DNA of 64,000 nucleotides, taken from assembly GCA_016193465.1 (NCBI GenBank), contig JACPSE010000124.1, positions 290 to 64,289 on the forward strand, read 5' to 3'. The notes beneath the pieces are model-generated. The model searched no databases. It saw nothing but the letters and a program-made list of their open reading frames with translations, and had not been told where the DNA came from. A program made the translations under genes and the position numbers. Shown in pieces: positions 4,701 through 12,839 of the stretch; positions within the stretch are counted from its first letter, which is position 1; each line of letters starts with the position of its first letter. The DNA comes from Deltaproteobacteria bacterium (GTDB taxonomy: Bacteria > Desulfobacterota > Binatia > UBA9968).

Positions 4701-5461
4701 GGATGGGTCAGCCGCACCGGGATGCCTCTCGCGTGGAGATAGCTCTTACATTCCGCGATGGTATATTCTCGATAGTGAAAGATCGAGGCGGCCAGGGCGG
4801 CACTGGCGCCGCCGGTAGTCAGCCCTTCGTAGACGTGCTCTAAATTGCCTACGCCGCCGGAGGCGATTACCGGAACCCGGACCTGCTTAGAGATAGCCCT
4901 GGTCAACTCCAAATCGTAACCCTCCTTAGTCCCGTCGCGATCCATGCTGGTAAGGAGGATCTCCCCCGCGCCGTAACCGGCCATCCTCTCTGCCCACTCG
5001 CAGGCGTCGATCCCCGTGGGTTTTCTCCCGCCGTGAGTGAAGACTTCCCAGCCGTTTGCCGCTCGCTTGGCGTCGATTGCCACAACGATACACTGGCTGC
5101 CGAAGGTTTCTGCCGCTTCGCGCACAAACTCAGGCCGGGCCACGGCGCCGGTGTTGATAGAGACCTTATCTGCCCCGGCCCTTAGTAGCTTGCGGATATC
5201 TTCAAGCCCGTTGATGCCGCCTCCGACGGTAAGGGGCATAAAGATTTCATCCGCCGTGCGGGAGACTACATCGAGGATGGTTTCCCTGTTTTCATGGGAA
5301 GCGGTGATATCCAAGAAACAGAGTTCATCCGCGCCCTCACGGTCGTAGACGCGCGCGACCTCAACCGGGTCGCCGGCATCGCGGAGACCGACGAATTTAA
5401 CTCCTTTAACTACCCGTCCCGCCTCTACGTCGAGACAGGGAATGATGCGCTTGGCAAGCAT
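4697..5461 (-). CDS. hisF: Imidazole glycerol phosphate synthase cyclase subunit HisF
   Basis: KRIIPCLDV...KGV.F...AGDP N-terminus and (beta/alpha)8 HisF hallmark motifs; 4-nt overlap with downstream gene. Confidence 0.9.
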
Positions 5462-5583
5462 ACGATGCCCGGTAGTCTAGCCGAGACTTTGGGATAGCTC
5501 AAGGTAAAAGAGGGGTCGGTTTTGCCGCGGAGTTAGCTTTCGAGTTGACATTATTACCGATCCTTGGATAGGCTCCGCCGATC

Positions 5584-7071
5584 ATGCCTCAGGTAGCGAT
5601 TAGACCTGGAACTGAGAAATGGCCCAGAACTCTTCTCAGGTGGACTATAACGGCCACTGCCATCTTCCTTGGCGGTTGTAGTCTCCATAGACCCATTCTG
5701 CAGGAACATGTCCCGGGACTGGGTCGCTTTGAATTCCGGGAACCGGCTGAAGGGATGGGGGGTGTCGTGGTCGGTGCCCCGCACGGGAGAACGGATCGCT
5801 ATTCGGACAGACTTGCTCGTGCGATCAGTGACCGGACAGGAGCCGGCCTGGCGATCGCCTACGGGTTCCGCTCTAAGCGGATTTCTGTGAATCAGCCTAT
5901 CGTCAGGTCGGGCGCATACTCGACATCCTGGAACTTTCCCCAACGCGGAAGCGTCTTCAGAGAGTACAAAAAGGTCCTGCGCAGAGCGGCCAAAGGGGAG
6001 ATCGACCTGTATATAGGGGTTCACAGATGGGGGACAGGGGAAGCTGATCGGATTGAAGTCGCCACCAGTGGCCTGACGTTTGAGGAGGCAATGATCCTTA
6101 AAGAGACCTACGCTCGAATCCGCGATGAGCTGGTTCCAAAAGGGCAGGCTCCCCGGCTCGAAATGGCCATCGAACCGATCGAGAGGATCTCTTGGCGAGT
6201 TTCGGGAGTGAAGCACCACGGAGTGCTCCTGATTGCGGAAAAGGGCCTGAATATCCGACTGCCCCAATTTTTCTCCTCCGACTCCGGGGAGAGACTCTAC
6301 GCGGAAATCTTATCTCGCTGGGTTGGCCAGGTGATAGTCGTCCTGCGGGAAAATCCGGGGAGACTCCCACAGATTCAGGTCCAGGTCACGGACTTGGGCA
6401 GGTTCGAATTGGTTGAGTCCAGAAAACGGTTTTCAGGGGTTGTCATCGGTTCTCCTCATGGCAGCTACGACGAATTCACGGCGGAGGTGGTGAAGCGTCT
6501 CAGTTATCGGACAGGATTTGCCGCGGTTATCGCCAAGGGCTTTACGCCCACCGAGACGGGGGGAACGCGCATCAACGTCAACCGGCCCACAGAGAAGTTG
6601 CCCTATTCGGAGGGGCGCGAGATCCACAGCCGGCGTGCGACGGAGACCTACCACGCTTTTAAAGATCTTGTGTTCGCCGCCTCGAGCGGAGACTTGGAGC
6701 TCTATATTGATATCCATCAATACAACACGGATAGCAAAATCCAGGTGGCCACAGTAGGTATCTCTCAGAGGGAGGCCAAGATCATCAAAAAGATCTACGG
6801 TGAAATCCGGGACCAAACCCTGAAGAGGCAATCTCATATCCCGGTGGTTGAGCTTCTCATAGAGCCGCTTGATGAGGTGGAGATTGGTGCCTGGGCAGCC
6901 AAGATCGAGGGCATCTTGGGCCAAGCCAAGAAGAGCTTGCACTTTGAGCTGCCGGGCGAAAAAGCCCTTACAACAAGCGAGACCCGGGAGGCCTACACCC
7001 GTATCTTGGCTGCCCTTCTGCGAGAGTCGGCGCCTATACTGGCATCGCGGGCGAAGACGCTAATACGATAG
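5584..7071 (+). CDS. Lipoprotein with two tandem ~200-aa homologous domains (possibly DUF867/poly-gamma-glutamate hydrolase-like)
   Basis: Lipobox LGGC after signal peptide; internal duplication (GVVVGAPHGRTDRYSD.. / GVVIGSPHGSYDEFT.. and LYIGVHRWGTGEADRIEVAT / LYIDIHQYNTDSKIQVAT); family assignment is tentative. Confidence 0.55.
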   Translation: MPQVAIRPGTEKWPRTLLRWTITATAIFLGGCSLHRPILQEHVPGLGRFEFREPAEGMGGVVVGAPHGRTDRYSDRLARAISDRTGAGLAIAYGFRSKRISVNQPIVRSGAYSTSWNFPQRGSVFREYKKVLRRAAKGEIDLYIGVHRWGTGEADRIEVATSGLTFEEAMILKETYARIRDELVPKGQAPRLEMAIEPIERISWRVSGVKHHGVLLIAEKGLNIRLPQFFSSDSGERLYAEILSRWVGQVIVVLRENPGRLPQIQVQVTDLGRFELVESRKRFSGVVIGSPHGSYDEFTAEVVKRLSYRTGFAAVIAKGFTPTETGGTRINVNRPTEKLPYSEGREIHSRRATETYHAFKDLVFAASSGDLELYIDIHQYNTDSKIQVATVGISQREAKIIKKIYGEIRDQTLKRQSHIPVVELLIEPLDEVEIGAWAAKIEGILGQAKKSLHFELPGEKALTTSETREAYTRILAALLRESAPILASRAKTLIR

Positions 7072-7194
7072 CGGAATCGTCAGGGACGGCTGGTCCGGCC
7101 TAGGTTGCGACTTTAGATTGACATCCTTCCGGGGAAGATGTAAAAGGCATCGTAATTACGGCATGTCACCATAACCGTGCGAAAGGAGAAAAAA

Positions 7195-7752
7195 ATGGCT
7201 GATCGTTTAAGTGTGGTGCTCTCCGGGTTAATGTTTTTCTCTTTTCTTGTGCTAACCGGCTGTCCCCCGCCGGCGACCAGCAAGCCAGAGGTGGCGCCTG
7301 CATCGCCCCAGGCAGCGGCTAAGGCAAGTCCCAAACAAAAAGTTGCCAAGTCAAAGTCTCCAGCTTCAAGTCTGGAAGCGAGGCGCGAGGGCAAGGCTCC
7401 GGCTGAGGGCCCCCTGAAGGATATCTATTTTGATTTTGACAAGTACGACCTTCGGGCCGATGCGCGGGCCACGCTTAAAGCGAATGCCAATTGGCTCAAG
7501 GCCAACCCCTCTGCCAGGGTGGAAATCGAGGGACACTGCGACGAGCGGGGAACCAACGAGTACAATTTGGCGTTGGGCGCCAAGAGGGCCCAGGCAGCTA
7601 GGGACTATCTCATTAGCCTGGGGATCGCCAAGGGGCGGACCTCTACCAAGAGCTACGGGGAGGAGTTGCCAGTGTGCAAGGAACAGAATGAGGGCTGCTG
7701 GCAGAAGAACCGCCACGACCGATTTGTTGTCATGGCTGCGCGATCGACTTAA
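7195..7752 (+). CDS. pal: Peptidoglycan-associated lipoprotein Pal (OmpA-family C-terminal domain)
   Basis: Lipobox LTGC, Pro/Ala/Lys linker, OmpA-like domain DIYFDFDKYDLR...NEYNLALGAKRA; RBS aaaggag upstream of ATG 7195. Confidence 0.85.
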   Translation: MADRLSVVLSGLMFFSFLVLTGCPPPATSKPEVAPASPQAAAKASPKQKVAKSKSPASSLEARREGKAPAEGPLKDIYFDFDKYDLRADARATLKANANWLKANPSARVEIEGHCDERGTNEYNLALGAKRAQAARDYLISLGIAKGRTSTKSYGEELPVCKEQNEGCWQKNRHDRFVVMAARST

Positions 7753-7828
7753 GAGTTTTCACCTCCAAGCGCCCTTCGTCCAGAGATCGTAGGGCAGGCT
7801 ATAGGGTCGGCCTGGCAAGGACCGCCAG

Positions 7829-7888
7829 GCCGCCCTCCGGTCTTCACCACCTTCAGCTTTTAAGGCTCGAAGACGGGCGGTTTTTTTT
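7829..7888 (+). terminator. Rho-independent terminator after pal
   Basis: GC stem ccgccc..ggtcttc / gaagacgggcgg followed by T8. Confidence 0.55.
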
Positions 7889-8011
7889 AATCGAACAACA
7901 AGCCCTTTTTCCTCTTGACAAAGGGTGGATTGTTACAGTATAGGGCTTAAGTCGTAGGCAATAATTGTGACCTAAGTCCTATGGAATGTTTAAAACAATT
8001 GGAGGGCAGAA

Positions 8012-8464
8012 ATGAATGGTTTACTTTCGGCAGCGGGTATTATTTTGGTGTTTTTTGCTCTTTCTTCCTGCGCCCTAGAACAGGAGATGGCGACCCCACC
8101 GGCAGAGCCAGCGACACCGGCGGTTGCCGAGGCAAAAAAAGCGCCGGAGCCACCAATCGTTGAGGCCAAGAAGGTTGCACCGCTAGCAAAAGCACCGGAA
8201 GCGAAGGCGAAACCGATCAAGACCTCAGGTGATGTAGGACTGCTGGATTTGGAGAAAAATTACCTCATCCTGGTGACCAAAGAGGGAAAGCTCATTACGG
8301 CCGATTTCAATAATAAGACAAAGGTCCAGAAACTCGTGCCCCAGCCGGCAAAAATGAGCGATATCAGTCTAGGACAAAGCGCTACAGTTGAATACCAACA
8401 GAAAGGTGGAAAAAATATAGCCACCTCCCTTGAATACACAACCAAGGCAAAGAAGGGCGAATAG
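8012..8464 (+). CDS. Small lipoprotein, paralog 1 of conserved ~80-aa secreted domain family (GDVGLLDxEKNYxILVTKEGKLIT)
   Basis: Signal peptide with LSSC lipobox, Ala/Pro/Lys-rich linker, conserved C-terminal domain shared with ORFs at 8490 and 11166. Confidence 0.7.
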   Translation: MNGLLSAAGIILVFFALSSCALEQEMATPPAEPATPAVAEAKKAPEPPIVEAKKVAPLAKAPEAKAKPIKTSGDVGLLDLEKNYLILVTKEGKLITADFNNKTKVQKLVPQPAKMSDISLGQSATVEYQQKGGKNIATSLEYTTKAKKGE

Positions 8465-8489
8465 GATTATAAATAAAGAGGAGACGGAC

Positions 8490-8825
8490 ATGGGAAAGAA
8501 ATTAGCTTGCGCTGCCATCATATTGACATTTTTCGCCGTAGCCCCGACCATGGCCGGGGAGAAAAAAGCTAAACCGTTGAAAGTAACCGGGGACGTTGGC
8601 CTTTTGGACACGGAGAAGAACTACATGATCGTCGTGACCAAGGAGGGCAAGCTCATTACTATTGATTTCGATAAGAAAACCAAGGTGACCAATTATGTCA
8701 CTCAAAAGGCCAAGATGAGCGATCTTAACCTCGGAGAAGCCGCCTCTATAACTTACAAGAAGCAGGGAGATAAAAACATCCTCGATGCCATCGACGTTAA
8801 GGTAAAGGCAAAAAAAGGCGAATAA
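8490..8825 (+). CDS. Small secreted protein, paralog 2 of the same family
   Basis: RBS aaagaggag; signal peptide (AxA cleavage TMA/GE); domain VTGDVGLLDTEKNYMIVVTKEGKLITIDF..KAKKGE. Confidence 0.75.
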   Translation: MGKKLACAAIILTFFAVAPTMAGEKKAKPLKVTGDVGLLDTEKNYMIVVTKEGKLITIDFDKKTKVTNYVTQKAKMSDLNLGEAASITYKKQGDKNILDAIDVKVKAKKGE

Positions 8826-8945
8826 TTTTAAAGGCGGGGCGACTAGCTGGAGTCACCCCATCCTGATGGGCTCAGGTTCCGATTTCTCTCGGGGCCTGAG
8901 CCCACCTCCTTGCGTAACTGGAACAGCAGTCGATCCAGCCGGCCC

Positions 8946-10160
8946 CTATTGGTTTTGGACCGCAACATTTTCTCCCCTTAAAGGTGCTCTAAAAGAGATT
9001 CTGGTTCCTTTGCCGGGAGAGGTTTCGATGGACAGTTCCCCACCGAGCTTATTGATTCTCTCTTCCATGGAAATCAAGCCGAATCCGCCGCCATTCCTTG
9101 CGGCAGAAAGATCAAACCCCACTCCATCGTCTTTCAACGATCCGCGGACTTCTGCCCCTGCTTCCGTCAATAGGAGCTCAGCGCTTGACGCTTGGGAGTG
9201 GCGGGCAATATTGCTCAGTCCTTCCCTGAGAACATAGTAGATTTCCTCCTCGACTTGGGAAGGGAGGGTCAGATCCTCCGGCTCACTCTCCAGCACTACT
9301 TGCAGTCCTAAGCCATCGCGCAAGAAGCGCATCTCTTCTTTTAGCTTTTCGATCAAGATTCCGGGCGTGAAATCCTGACTGTCTTTCCCCGTAAGAAATC
9401 TGCGGATCTCCTCCATCGAGTTTCGAGTAGCCTGCTCCATTAACTCAAGCTCCCGGCTGAGTTCTTCGCGGGTGTCCATCAGGTGCCTGCGGCAAGTCTC
9501 GAGCCGAAGAGTCAGGCTTGCCAGAACCTGGAGTAGGCGGTCATGGAGTTCACGGGCGATTCTTCGTCTTTCTTCCTGGGTTGCAGCTTCCCCGGCAGTT
9601 TTATAAAGGGCCATGAGTTTTTGATTCTGTTTTTTTTCAAATTCGCTGAGAAAGCCAAAAATATAGGCTAGCATGAAAAGGTAGATGGTCCTGATAATAA
9701 AGGTGTCGATGGCCAAAGGATTTTCCCAGAAGGGAGAGAAGCGGATAAATCCATAAAGAACGGCTCCAGCCAGGGCCACGAGGAGGCCTCCTTTGATTCC
9801 GTATCTGGAGCTGGCCGTGATGACGGGGAAAAGGTAATAAACAAAGAACGGCGCCCGGGAGCCGCCAGTGGAGAAGACCATCAAGGAGATCCATAAAATA
9901 TCCAAAAAGGTCGTCACGAGCCCGATGACCCTTGAGTCCCATTTTTCCTTTTTTATGAGATAAAGGACCAGGAGGCTGTAGAAGAAAAAAGAGAATAGGG
10001 AAATGTGGGAGAGCAGCGGGAATTTCGCCACCCTCAGCGGGTTGAGCTGGACGACCAGAAGGGCGGCAAGAGAAAAACCCAGTCTAACCCAGGCGAGCGT
10101 TTTCTCTTTCTGCAGCAGCCATTGATCCTCCAGCGTTACTATCCTCGATGCGGAAGCCAT
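8946..10160 (-). CDS. Sensor histidine kinase, NarL/LiaS-type (multi-TM intramembrane sensor, HisKA_3 + HATPase_c)
   Basis: Five to six N-terminal TM helices with no periplasmic domain; H-box ARELHDRL; ATPase motifs GLSNIARHS, DDGVGFD, GGFGL. Confidence 0.85.
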   Translation of the reverse strand: MASASRIVTLEDQWLLQKEKTLAWVRLGFSLAALLVVQLNPLRVAKFPLLSHISLFSFFFYSLLVLYLIKKEKWDSRVIGLVTTFLDILWISLMVFSTGGSRAPFFVYYLFPVITASSRYGIKGGLLVALAGAVLYGFIRFSPFWENPLAIDTFIIRTIYLFMLAYIFGFLSEFEKKQNQKLMALYKTAGEAATQEERRRIARELHDRLLQVLASLTLRLETCRRHLMDTREELSRELELMEQATRNSMEEIRRFLTGKDSQDFTPGILIEKLKEEMRFLRDGLGLQVVLESEPEDLTLPSQVEEEIYYVLREGLSNIARHSQASSAELLLTEAGAEVRGSLKDDGVGFDLSAARNGGGFGLISMEERINKLGGELSIETSPGKGTRISFRAPLRGENVAVQNQ

Positions 10161-10197
10161 GACAGCACCTTAAGAATGGCCAAGTTTTACCACTCGC

Positions 10198-10905
10198 TTA
10201 CGAACCGCGGCTTTTTCCCCTCCAAGCTTGGGATGGCGCGCCGGATTCCGCAGAGCGGTTCATAATGAGCAGGGCGGCCTTGAACCGGTTATTGACCTTG
10301 AGTTTGTCAAAGATGTTAGTCAGGTGTGTTTTCACAGTCTTCTCACTAATGAAAATCCTTTTGCCGATTTCTTCATTGGTCAGGCCTTCGGCAACGAGTC
10401 TCAAAATCTCCATCTCTCTTTTGGTTAAGTGCTTGATCGCCTCGTTTGCCGGTTCCGTTCCATGCTTGCCAGACTGTAATAAGGCGATCTCCTCGAAGGC
10501 ATCCGCCGAGGACATCTCTTTATCAACCCAAGAGCCACCGCTATGAACTGTCTTGATCGCCTGCAGCAGGGTGGCAGAGGAGACGCCTTTCAGCACATAA
10601 CCCTTAGCCCCTCCCTTCGCGGCATTGAGAATATTTTCGTCTTCGGAGAAGGCTGTGAGGATAAGGACTTTGGCGGTTGGTTTTTTTTCGTTTAAATCGA
10701 GTAGGGTTTGGACTACATCTCCTTTGGGCATTTTCAGATCCAACAGCACCACATCCGGTTTGGTCCGCTCTACCACCTTAGCCACTTCATCTCCTCGGGC
10801 GGCCTCTCCAACTACCAAGACGTCCTTTTCTAAAGAAAGGATACGCTTCAGTCCTTCCCGGAAAAGGGCATGGTCATCAGCGATGACGACTTTAATTGGT
10901 CCCAT
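10198..10905 (-). CDS. Response regulator, NarL/FixJ family (REC + LuxR-type HTH)
   Basis: VVIADDH...DVVLLDLKMP receiver; C-terminal LTKREMEILRLVAEGLTNEEIGKRIFISEKTVKTH HTH. Confidence 0.9.
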   Translation of the reverse strand: MGPIKVVIADDHALFREGLKRILSLEKDVLVVGEAARGDEVAKVVERTKPDVVLLDLKMPKGDVVQTLLDLNEKKPTAKVLILTAFSEDENILNAAKGGAKGYVLKGVSSATLLQAIKTVHSGGSWVDKEMSSADAFEEIALLQSGKHGTEPANEAIKHLTKREMEILRLVAEGLTNEEIGKRIFISEKTVKTHLTNIFDKLKVNNRFKAALLIMNRSAESGAPSQAWRGKSRGS

Positions 10906-11165
10906 GAATCCCTCCGCGGCAGTGGGGATGTGAAAGTATAGGTAAGATACATGAAATTCTCCGCCAAGCCAACGCCGTCGCAGAAGGTCAGTCTTTAAGG
11001 TGCCGTTGGGCTTCTTTTCCTACGACTCTAGTCTTATTCGCTTCCATTCGCGACCGGCAATGGGGACGAAAAATCCTACCTATAGCGTATTGTTAAGGTG
11101 CACCCCAACAGGTTAGGTATTAGCTTGCTAATTGGTGTCGGAGATTTTTTAAGGAGGAACATCAT

Positions 11166-11516
11166 ATGAAAATGAGGCCGATTTTATTTGCTGCCTGCGC
11201 CCTTTCTCTGATCCTGGTTTTCCCTTTGATGGCCCAGGAGGGAAAGAAGGCCGAGAAGAAAAAGGCGGAAAAGGCAAAGGGAGATGTGGGGCTCCTCGAT
11301 ACCGAAAAAAATTACATGATCTTGGTAACTAAAGAAGGTAAGCTGATCACCCTAGATTTCAACCAAAAGTCCAAGGTGACCATGCTGGAGGCAAAAGACG
11401 CCAAGATGGGTGATGTCGGCCTGGGCTCTTCCGCGGAGGTCGAATACGTTGCCGGTGAAGGGGACCAGAAGGTTGTCACCAAGATGGAATTTCGGCCGGC
11501 CAAAGGCGGCGATTAA
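11166..11516 (+). CDS. Small secreted protein, paralog 3 of the same family
   Basis: Signal peptide (LMA/QE), domain KGDVGLLDTEKNYMILVTKEGKLITLDF; RBS aaggagg upstream; divergent from response regulator. Confidence 0.75.
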   Translation: MKMRPILFAACALSLILVFPLMAQEGKKAEKKKAEKAKGDVGLLDTEKNYMILVTKEGKLITLDFNQKSKVTMLEAKDAKMGDVGLGSSAEVEYVAGEGDQKVVTKMEFRPAKGGD

Positions 11517-11801
11517 CCCTCCTTAAGTTTTCATCAGTTTAAAAACAGGGCGGGTTCTGAAACAGTTCAGGGCCTGCCTTCTTTTACTTCAGGCGAAGCT
11601 AATACAGCAAGACGGCTTTCAGATCCGGCACATTGGTTCCAGTTGATCCTCGAAGAGGGCTTCCCAAAGCGGCGCCGTCAGATCGACGCCCTTTCCTGCG
11701 CCAGCCACATAGACATTGCCTGTTAAAGGAGCTTGCGTCCCCAGCCTTTTTTCATCTATATTGTACATGCATCTGGATCTAGGAACCCGTTAGGAGGGGT
11801 T

Positions 11802-12332
11802 ATGAGTGACGCTGAGTTTGTTCCCCAAGAGGGGCCCAAGGCCTTTATAACAGTCTGGCGTAAGGTGATATTAGACCCCCGCGGGTTTTACGGCGACATG
11901 CCGGCGACCGGGGGCTTCGAAAATCCCCTGATTTTCTTGGGCATCTGCGCTCTCTTTTACTTTATACTCAAGGTTATTGTAGGGGGTCTTCCGGAAGCCA
12001 TAAATGCCCTCTTTTTGGTTGCTTTGGCATACATTTTCGGCCCTGGCATCCTGATGCTGGCCTCCCAGTTCATTTTCCAGGGAGAAGGGGACTATGAGGG
12101 GAGCCTGCGCGTATGCGCCTATGCTGGATCCTGTCTGGTTCTCGCCTGGGTACCGACCTTGGGCATCATCGCGTTTGTTTATAGCTTCTATCTCGTTTTT
12201 CTCGGCACGGAAAAAATCCACAAGCTTGACACGACCAAGGCCGTCATCGTCACCCTTGTCGCGATTCTTGTCACTGGAGCTATTATACTTTGGGTTCTCG
12301 GGTGGGACCGGATTCGCCGCCCTCTTTTCTAA
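11802..12332 (+). CDS. Yip1-family integral membrane protein
   Basis: Cytoplasmic N-terminus then 4-5 TM helices; Yip1-like topology and size; start at MSDAEF (long ORF from 11733). Confidence 0.5.
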   Translation: MSDAEFVPQEGPKAFITVWRKVILDPRGFYGDMPATGGFENPLIFLGICALFYFILKVIVGGLPEAINALFLVALAYIFGPGILMLASQFIFQGEGDYEGSLRVCAYAGSCLVLAWVPTLGIIAFVYSFYLVFLGTEKIHKLDTTKAVIVTLVAILVTGAIILWVLGWDRIRRPLF

Positions 12333-12368
12333 GGGGCCTGCTCGGATCAAAAGAAGGAGCTTGGAGAT

Positions 12369-12839
12369 TTACAGGTTATCGTCCTCAGTGTCCGTGATGG
12401 CGAGCTTGCGGTAGCTTCTCTCATCTTCGAACTTCTTTTGCAGCCTGCTTTCCTTTTCCATCTCCTCCTGGCACTTCACGCACAGCCGCGTAAAAGGAAG
12501 GACCTTGAGCCTTCCCAATTGAATCTCGCCCTCGCAGTTTTCGCAGCCGCACTCGCAGATCCCGTAGGTTTTGTCCTTGATCCTCTGAAGGGCCTCGTCG
12601 ATGGCTAACAGCTTTTCCCGCTCGCGGTCGTTAAGGATAAAGTTGATTTCCCGATCTCTCTCGTCGCTGGCCAGGTCGTAGGTGTCCCGCCCTTCGTCCT
12701 TGCTCCCCTCCGTCTCCTCCTTGACGCGCTCCTGGATCTCGCGGAGAAGCTGTTTCTTTGTCTCCAGCAGCGTTTCCTCGGCCTTTTTTAGGAGTTCTTT
12801 TCTCACCTTCTTATCCTGACTCGGTTTAGATTTAGGCAT
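12369..12839 (-). CDS. DksA/TraR-family C4-type zinc-finger protein
   Basis: Coiled-coil N-terminus and CECGCENCEGEI...CVKCQ four-Cys finger. Confidence 0.7.
   Translation of the reverse strand: MPKSKPSQDKKVRKELLKKAEETLLETKKQLLREIQERVKEETEGSKDEGRDTYDLASDERDREINFILNDREREKLLAIDEALQRIKDKTYGICECGCENCEGEIQLGRLKVLPFTRLCVKCQEEMEKESRLQKKFEDERSYRKLAITDTEDDNL

Follow-up and report, generated by a model that had tools for sequence, protein, structure and literature searches.

The 64-kb window analyzed here, which is the whole stretch of DNA under study, comes from an uncultured soil bacterium of the Binatia and carries, around positions 8012 to 11516, a histidine kinase, its response regulator and three flanking genes for small secreted proteins. 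We consider it probable that this module of a diderm bacterium works as a self-contained circuit for sensing the envelope, of the same kind as LiaSR, CesSR and VraSR, with the flanking small genes as the outputs of the regulator. The small genes are most likely the regulator's direct local regulon, because the promoter regions on both sides carry a conserved palindrome of the LiaR/CesR type. For comparison we examined 73 loci from species-representative genomes and 6 from metagenome contigs; many of the locus contigs are truncated, and the full gene order is not visible in every locus.

An earlier sequence-only reading of this DNA had described five genes directly downstream of pal, and this gene anatomy is established by our analysis, with all five at the positions it had given:

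8012 to 8464, plus strand: small protein 1, a lipoprotein of 150 residues with lipobox FALSS↓C
8490 to 8825, plus strand: small protein 2, a soluble secreted paralog of 111 residues with a Sec-type signal ending TMA↓GE
8946 to 10160, minus strand: intramembrane-sensing histidine kinase with HisKA_3 and HATPase_c domains and six transmembrane helices
10198 to 10905, minus strand: NarL/LuxR-type response regulator with Response_reg and GerE domains
11166 to 11516, plus strand: small protein 3, a soluble secreted paralog of 116 residues with a Lys/Glu-rich linker, its signal ending LMA↓QE
7177 to 7752, plus strand: pal (peptidoglycan-associated lipoprotein), the upstream neighbor, given for context only

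Small genes 1 and 2 converge on the 3′ end of the kinase gene, and small gene 3 diverges from the regulator gene. In small protein 1, a Pro/Ala/Lys-rich linker of ~50 residues is followed by a CusF-like beta-barrel domain of ~78 residues. Pairwise identity among the three small proteins is 51 to 60%, with 48 invariant columns that include GDVGLLDxEKNYxIxVTKEGKLIT. This similarity is far above chance, and the proteins are, as had been proposed, true paralogs sharing a domain that has no Pfam or NCBIfam description; scans of the three against these databases gave nothing usable. The assignment of pal passed the cut-off of the NCBIfam equivalog TIGR02802 Pal_lipo (135.1 versus 125.35 bits), and the gene product also matched Pfam OmpA at 4e-22.

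K-mer counting and alignment of the regions upstream of the small genes revealed a 7-2-7 palindrome, TA(C/A/G)GACT-NN-AGTC(T/G/C)TA (TACGACTnnAGTCGTA), which is conserved across loci in both small-gene promoter regions. The candidate operators in the window, listed without a strand, are as follows:

7941 to 7956: left operator 1, TAGGGCTTAAGTCGTA, a 7-2-7 palindrome lying over the predicted −10 hexamer and transcription start
7966 to 7981: left operator 2, TGTGACCTAAGTCCTA, a weaker site and the second best in the position matrix listing
11021 to 11036: right operator, TACGACTCTAGTCTTA, in the divergent region between regulator and small gene, with one mismatch to the consensus

When up to three mismatches were allowed, the entire 64-kb window contained two matches only, at 7941-7956 and 11021-11036. 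Left operator 2, centered 25 bp downstream of operator 1, falls in the interval from the predicted start site to the ribosome-binding site, and most left regions have a second site at a comparable distance. A position matrix for the right-hand site, built from 52 loci, was near-invariant at positions 1 (T, 52/52), 6 (C, 52/52), 11 (G, 51/52) and 16 (A, 49/52), and the right palindrome lies 113 to 139 bp from the start of the small gene in most loci. Across all loci, we counted 61 sites with at least 12 of the 14 specified bases in ~20 kb of promoter regions, compared with 21 in ~700 kb elsewhere, and 16 of these 21 adjoin small genes in regions outside the promoter definitions used. The palindrome is close to exclusive to small-gene promoters.

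The palindrome fits the Enterococcus faecalis LiaR consensus T-N4-C-N4-G-N4-A as quoted in a preprint (bioRxiv 10.1101/2022.11.16.516778, citing Davlieva 2015), and the four fixed positions of that consensus are the near-invariant ones of the right-hand sites. The lactococcal CesR motif TCAGHCTnnAGDCTGA, quoted in PMC4447274, likewise agrees with the core of the palindrome. No known RNA family was found in the leaders by Rfam search, and we judged that the 2-nt spacer would make a poor loop if the palindrome formed an RNA hairpin. While the conservation and promoter specificity of the palindrome are observed, its binding by the regulator encoded here is an inference.

Two further palindromic features were seen in other loci. 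A second, different palindrome, CACGATAAGTATCGTC, is conserved in many right-hand regions of loci with two small genes on each side (for example, L025, L032, L039, and L040), about 35 to 45 bp upstream of the first right-hand small gene and overlapping the likely −10 region there; the window lacks it. In locus L001, pal is inverted and has two operator-like sites (12/14 bases), at 2827-2842 and 2926-2941, just upstream of it, a hint that some genomes may include pal in the regulon.

The predicted promoters and terminators around these sites are listed here in order of position:

7865 to 7888, plus strand: terminator-like hairpin and T-run after pal, GCTCGAAGACGGGC then GGTTTTTTTT
7915 to 7944, plus strand: predicted sigma-70 promoter of the left small-gene pair, with TTGACA at 7915-7920, an 18-nt spacer and TATAGG at 7939-7944
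8867 to 8904, no strand assigned: hairpin with a 16-bp stem, from the centroid structure, between the convergent small-gene operon and the kinase gene
10944 to 10972, minus strand: predicted regulator-kinase promoter, with TTGGCT at 10972-10967, a 17-nt spacer and TATCTT at 10949-10944
11069 to 11095, plus strand: conserved block AAAAATCCTACCTATAGCGTATTGTTA, found by K-mer counts and alignment
11547 to 11590, plus strand: terminator-like hairpin of 15 pairs, 3′ of the small protein 3 gene

A strict consensus scan missed the predicted left-pair promoter at 7915-7944, whose −10 hexamer has no T at its end, and the promoter assignments are therefore based on conservation between species. Of the 42 left upstream regions, 41 contain CTTGACA. 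Likewise, the putative regulator-kinase promoter reads TTGGC(T/A)-N17-TAT(C/T)TT across loci, and the alignment shows GCCAA and AAAATAC as conserved blocks. On the right, the block AAAAATCCTACCTATAGCGTATTGTTA ends across loci in a weak −35-like TTG(A/T)(G/T)A and probably holds an UP-element and the −35 hexamer (TTGTTA, 11090-11095) of a weak small-protein-3 promoter, an assignment that is tentative. The hairpin at 7865-7888 separates pal from the small-gene operon, and that at 8867-8904 is likely a bidirectional terminator; the z-score of −3.75 obtained here belongs to the entire folded 128-nt stretch from 8823 to 8950 and not to this hairpin by itself. Given the hairpin at 11547-11590, the small-protein-3 gene is taken to be monocistronic. 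Terminators thus isolate the small-gene units from pal on one side and from the downstream gene for a Yip1-domain membrane protein on the other.

In the circuit that we propose, the kinase would sense a condition in or at the inner membrane and then phosphorylate the NarL/LuxR-type regulator, whose dimer would bind the 7-2-7 palindromes in the two promoter regions flanking its own operon. On the left, operator 1 over the −10 and start of a strong TTGACA promoter, together with operator 2 downstream, would lead to repression. In the right divergent region, a site upstream of the weak small-gene promoter and of the regulator-kinase promoter would give activation and autoregulation. The sign of regulation is read from the positions of the sites only. 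The output would be periplasmic CusF-like single barrels on long flexible linkers, typically made across the lineage as a lipoprotein and a soluble partner. The small genes are placed like liaIH, cpxP or zraP, and their products are probably stress effectors of the sort that liaIH, cpxP/spy and zraP provide in their own systems.

The kinase belongs to the intramembrane-sensing class, as had been claimed from its translation: a hydropathy scan gave six hydrophobic segments and no periplasmic domain, the longest outward-facing loop having 12 residues. Its best NCBIfam matches, MacS (98 versus a cut-off of 300 bits) and LiaS (94 versus 450), were far below the cut-offs, as was the NCBIfam score for MadR (175.5 versus 300 bits). 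For a PilS-like six-helix sensor domain, Pfam 6TM_PilS gave 23.6 bits (gathering cut-off 27, E = 4.8e-5), and DUF4118 gave 23.9 bits (cut-off 28.4). Among proteins of solved structure, the nearest relatives of the kinase are DesK and VraS, and those of the regulator are NarL, DevR and VraR/LiaR, with the regulator similarly close to VraR/LiaR and to NarL. Intramembrane-sensing kinases often rely on partner proteins, as in the LiaF/LiaS and BceAB/BceS pairs, and no gene for a membrane partner of the LiaF or VraT type was found in the window locus or in related loci.

This dependence on partners would fit a different arrangement, in which the small paralogs would be accessory input proteins that bind the kinase or a ligand and set kinase activity, making the module a three-component system. 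There are precedents in CseA for CseC, LpqB for MtrB, NlpE for CpxA, and LiaF for LiaS, and such a role would not conflict with regulation of the small genes by the system, an arrangement seen in CpxP-type feedback. The lipoprotein encoded by the first gene, on a flexible linker of 40 to 50 residues, could span the periplasm; the almost invariant N-terminal half of the family domain suggests a conserved binding partner, and adjacency to the kinase and regulator genes is kept in nearly all loci. Against this, the kinase exposes no more than 12 residues to the periplasm, and its outward loops are no more conserved than the remaining protein, so that loop conservation does not point to a docking surface on the periplasmic side. 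Synteny confounds the argument from adjacency, and the persistence of small genes in three loci that lack the two-component system argues for a function that is independent of it. We regard input through these proteins as unlikely, and the accessory-ligand role assigned to them by the sequence-only reading gains no support from the short and not especially conserved loops. A more elaborate version, which we hold to be less likely still, would have a lipoprotein, tethered by its long flexible linker, and its free partner bind a conserved envelope component; the occupancy or localization of the two proteins would be reported to the kinase, which itself has no periplasmic domain. The two promoter sets would then form a feedback or switch, the left set having operators at repressing positions on a strong promoter and the right set being placed for activation. 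If true, this would be a new three-component sensing mechanism for diderm bacteria.

A database search for homologues of small protein 3 returned 5156 clusters. Among the 120 matches listed of these clusters, none had a precomputed Pfam domain; the few with a source name are hypothetical proteins of 'Candidatus Binatia' or 'Deltaproteobacteria' metagenome genomes. The homologues share a near-invariant stretch, GD(V/I)GLLDxEKNYMILVTKEGKL(I/V)T, and hardly vary in the N-terminal half of the domain. When 1.8 billion representative proteins were searched exhaustively with a profile, only 140 matches were obtained. The distant ones are secreted proteins with a single repeat or multiple repeats, and those that were scanned match DUF5666, CusF_Ec or DUF1344; for 29 distant secreted relatives, the Pfam assignments were CusF_Ec in 10, DUF5666 in 10 and DUF1344 in 3. 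Aligned with these 29 relatives by hhalign, the family scored 99.4% (E = 9e-22), a score that may partly stem from the signal peptide because the alignment begins there. A widened profile aligned with Escherichia coli CusF at 94.8% (E = 5e-8), and a PDB profile search found CusF (2vb2) at E = 1.7e-6 and SilF at E = 2e-3. The family-only profile had no match among PDB sequences, and the three window proteins did not match the CusF_Ec, DUF5666 or DUF1344 models even at E ≤ 1. The profile search that had been suggested as a check thus identifies the domain as a profile-level homologue of CusF/DUF5666/DUF1344 proteins, and the motif GD(V/I)GLLDxEKNYMILVTKEGKL is unique to the Binatia branch of CusF-like proteins.

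The domain comprises ~75 to 80 residues with five predicted strands behind a signal peptide, and its structure model is all-beta. Structure prediction of the domain on its own, also suggested earlier, gave a confident model (predicted local distance difference test [pLDDT] score, 90), yet Foldseek searches with it yielded no significant match, CusF included. From the profile comparisons, the family is best described as a divergent, Binatia-restricted branch of the CusF/DUF5666/DUF1344 small beta-barrel proteins. Whole-domain profile homology, the signal peptide and the five predicted strands are shared with CusF/SilF, DUF5666 and DUF1344 proteins, whereas the Binatia family lies below the Pfam thresholds, lacks conservation of the Cu(I)/Ag(I) ligands and gave no significant structural match with a confident model.

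A loose likeness to the YgdI/YgdR (DUF903) lipoproteins had also been suggested. Both groups are small lipoproteins with a short NY..T.DG..I-like stretch, but they are not related by profile: hhalign against the family gave 1.4% probability, Foldseek found YgdR (2jn0) at E = 2.7, and there was no Pfam match. We therefore rejected this kinship. The YgdI and YgdR sequences used here were checked as DUF903 members (E = 7e-24 and 2e-24).

Homology to CusF and SilF raises the question of copper or silver handling, with the small proteins as periplasmic metallochaperones and the two-component system as metal responsive, and the Joint Genome Institute name for the distant relatives is indeed 'Cu/Ag efflux protein CusF'. 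The Cu(I)/Ag(I) site of CusF, made up of His36, Met47 and Met49 with Trp44, is not retained. In the hhalign alignment, the ligand-bearing stretch of CusF pairs with a shorter family stretch that has no His, Trp or Cys and, of possible ligands, only the Met of NYM, and the family alignment contains no conserved His, Cys or Trp at all. A copper or silver role is unlikely because the CusF ligands and any conserved His, Cys or Trp are missing from the family. Moreover, none of the examined loci has cusCBA-like, P-type ATPase or multicopper oxidase genes, and the kinase, unlike CusS, has no periplasmic metal-sensing domain. With both ligands and efflux genes missing, we rejected the metal chaperone idea as very improbable. 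Since the metal ligands of CusF are not conserved, the binding partner of the proteins is probably a conserved component of the envelope and not copper or silver.

Some family members (P0030, P0056, P0088; L002 3984-4436; L056 6001-6423) have an insert of ~22 residues between the last two strands that resembles a charged helix, for example, EDKALEAKIKATEEELNRLRNEQKK. One metagenome protein, P0121 (222 residues), has, in a single polypeptide, a lipoprotein-type domain and, after it, a second family domain. It is either a gene fusion or an artifact of gene calling or a frameshift; if a fusion, it hints that the lipoprotein and soluble forms act together.

The locus layout recurs across the related loci. 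From hisF, the order runs through further genes to pal and the first small gene(s), then to the oppositely oriented kinase and regulator genes, the remaining small gene(s) and finally dksA-rimO-lolA-ftsK, with a Yip1-domain gene preceding dksA and, in some loci, a MOFRL-domain gene as well. The latter, a MOFRL/DUF4147 gene (glycerate kinase-like, opposite strand), lies between the right small gene and the Yip1 gene in L001 to L004 and is absent from the window, L005 and L006. By gene type, the recurrent layout is a lipoprotein gene and soluble gene(s) on each side of the kinase and regulator. Where contigs span the whole unit, two small genes on each side were found in 21 loci, one on each side in 13, and the form seen in the window (two left, one right) in 6. 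Of the 30 left pairs, 27 have a lipobox in the first gene, as do 35 of the 36 right pairs, and second genes almost never have one: the first encodes, nearly always, a lipoprotein with a Pro/Ala-rich linker and the second a soluble protein with a Lys/Glu-rich linker.

The linkage of the small genes to the kinase and regulator that had been expected from the window thus recurs across the Binatia-type loci examined; what the context survey could not do is separate it from inherited gene order, since the synteny is common to all. Co-occurrence with the two-component system is not independent proof of a functional link because all loci share one synteny, and the family occurs at a single locus in one lineage only. 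Around distant CusF-like relatives, a two-component system was present in one of four contexts and was of a different type (HisKA kinase and sigma-54-dependent regulator); a HisKA_3 system was found in none of the four. In that locus, L082 (2075-5426; Thermodesulfovibrionales), the distant CusF-like gene lies directly downstream of genes for a HAMP/HisKA kinase and a sigma-54-dependent response regulator, an arrangement like that of zraSR-zraP.

Three loci (L022, L028, and L056) have small genes and no two-component system, and each has a left-type promoter and a single small-gene set. L022 and L056 keep the TTGACA promoter and have lost the palindrome, which would be consistent with constitutive expression of the small genes there. 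In L061, the left and right pairs (5367-6231 versus 8470-9328) hardly differ from each other: their soluble proteins agree from end to end, and their lipoproteins everywhere except in the signal peptide, which implies gene conversion or recent duplication. Direct repeats flanking the two-component system could recombine and delete it, and the structure of L022, L028 and L056 is exactly as expected from such a repeat-mediated deletion.

Several points weigh against the proposed circuit. It is odd that, judged by the positions of the sites, two almost identical sets of paralogs would be regulated in opposite directions. On the right, the operator would lie ~97 bp upstream of the tentative small-gene start, and it lies ~91 bp upstream of the regulator promoter start in the window (an estimated ~70 bp in other loci). 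Systems of the LiaS type usually require a LiaF or VraT partner, and none is encoded at the locus. The placement of the output proteins near CusF finds no echo in the fold searches described above. Finally, the conservation comes from a single synteny in a single lineage and is not independent evidence, and the connection between regulator and palindrome is argued from the type and position of the motif and from its co-loss in two loci of three, with L028 retaining the palindrome without an adjacent two-component system.

The last two points would also fit neighbors brought together by coincidence, where the palindrome is bound by another regulator and the two-component system just happens to lie within an ancient tandem array of small genes that it does not regulate. 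The linkage could then simply be inherited, and the loci lacking the two-component system indicate that the small genes are able to stand alone. Yet the 7-2-7 geometry and the T-N4-C-N4-G-N4-A pattern are typical of LiaR/CesR-family regulators, the very class encoded here, one site lies inside the regulator's own divergent promoter region, and the palindrome has been lost in two of the three loci without a two-component system. We consider coincidence improbable and retain the LiaSR-like circuit as the favored explanation.

The proposed circuit can be set beside two groups of known systems. With LiaFSR, CesSR and VraSR of the Firmicutes it shares a HisKA_3 kinase without an extracytoplasmic sensor, a NarL/LuxR regulator, and, with binding predicted here, a 16-bp 7-2-7 inverted repeat of the pattern T-N4-C-N4-G-N4-A with the core G(H)CTnnAG(D)C. 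The predicted main targets are likewise small envelope-protein genes adjoining the system, and autoregulation is likely. It differs in that the Binatia host is diderm, with pal and lolA as neighbors; its kinase has six helices instead of two; there is no LiaF/VraT-like gene; the targets are CusF-fold periplasmic proteins rather than LiaI/LiaH (PspA-like); and the NCBIfam LiaS and MadR scores are far under the cut-offs.

In the enterobacterial CpxAR-cpxP, ZraSR-zraP and QseBC-ygiW systems, the gene for a small periplasmic protein lies beside, and often divergent from, the two-component system, and YgiW is also a periplasmic protein with an OB (oligonucleotide/oligosaccharide-binding) fold. The Binatia module is similar in having a small secreted gene divergent from a regulator-kinase operon with a predicted regulator site in the shared intergenic region. 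CpxP and ZraP, in contrast, are helical, act on kinases with periplasmic domains and have no sequence relationship to the Binatia family, which gave no Pfam or NCBIfam match to the helical LTXXQ family (CpxP/Spy/ZraP) and whose model is all-beta, so that only the gene arrangement is similar. The Binatia locus further differs from these systems in having paralogs on both sides, with a lipoprotein form included.

Two other features of the region were recorded. The G+C content is 0.49 to 0.52 over the module (window positions about 7500 to 12500) and 0.55 to 0.60 to either side, a drop that Lys/Glu-rich coding sequence and AT-rich promoters alone may account for. Between hisF and pal, an open reading frame of 495 residues (5584-7071, plus strand) with lipobox FLGG↓C contains an internal duplication, in which GVVVGAPHGRTDRYSD...IAYGF recurs as GVVIGSPHGSYDEF...IAKGF. 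It has no Pfam or NCBIfam match, and homologues occupy the equivalent position in some related loci (for example, L012, L013, L020, L054, and L074).

Binatia are abundant and uncultured, and to our knowledge almost nothing is known of their envelope sensing. Neither the two-component system nor the logic of the circuit is of a new kind. What is new is a protein family without a Pfam or NCBIfam model, a duplicated arrangement of small genes flanking the system with two differently placed operators, and a Lia-like system without LiaF in a diderm. A family of more than 5000 clusters, for which Pfam and NCBIfam have no model, is here assigned to the CusF/DUF5666 fold as a branch that does not conserve the metal ligands of CusF, and the locus provides a LiaSR-like example of sensing within the membrane, in a diderm and without LiaF. 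If the small proteins do not signal back to the kinase, the module would be one more local stress regulon; if they do, they would constitute a new class of accessory protein in two-component signaling. The locus offers a small circuit that lends itself to testing, its operator sequence being predicted and its targets defined.

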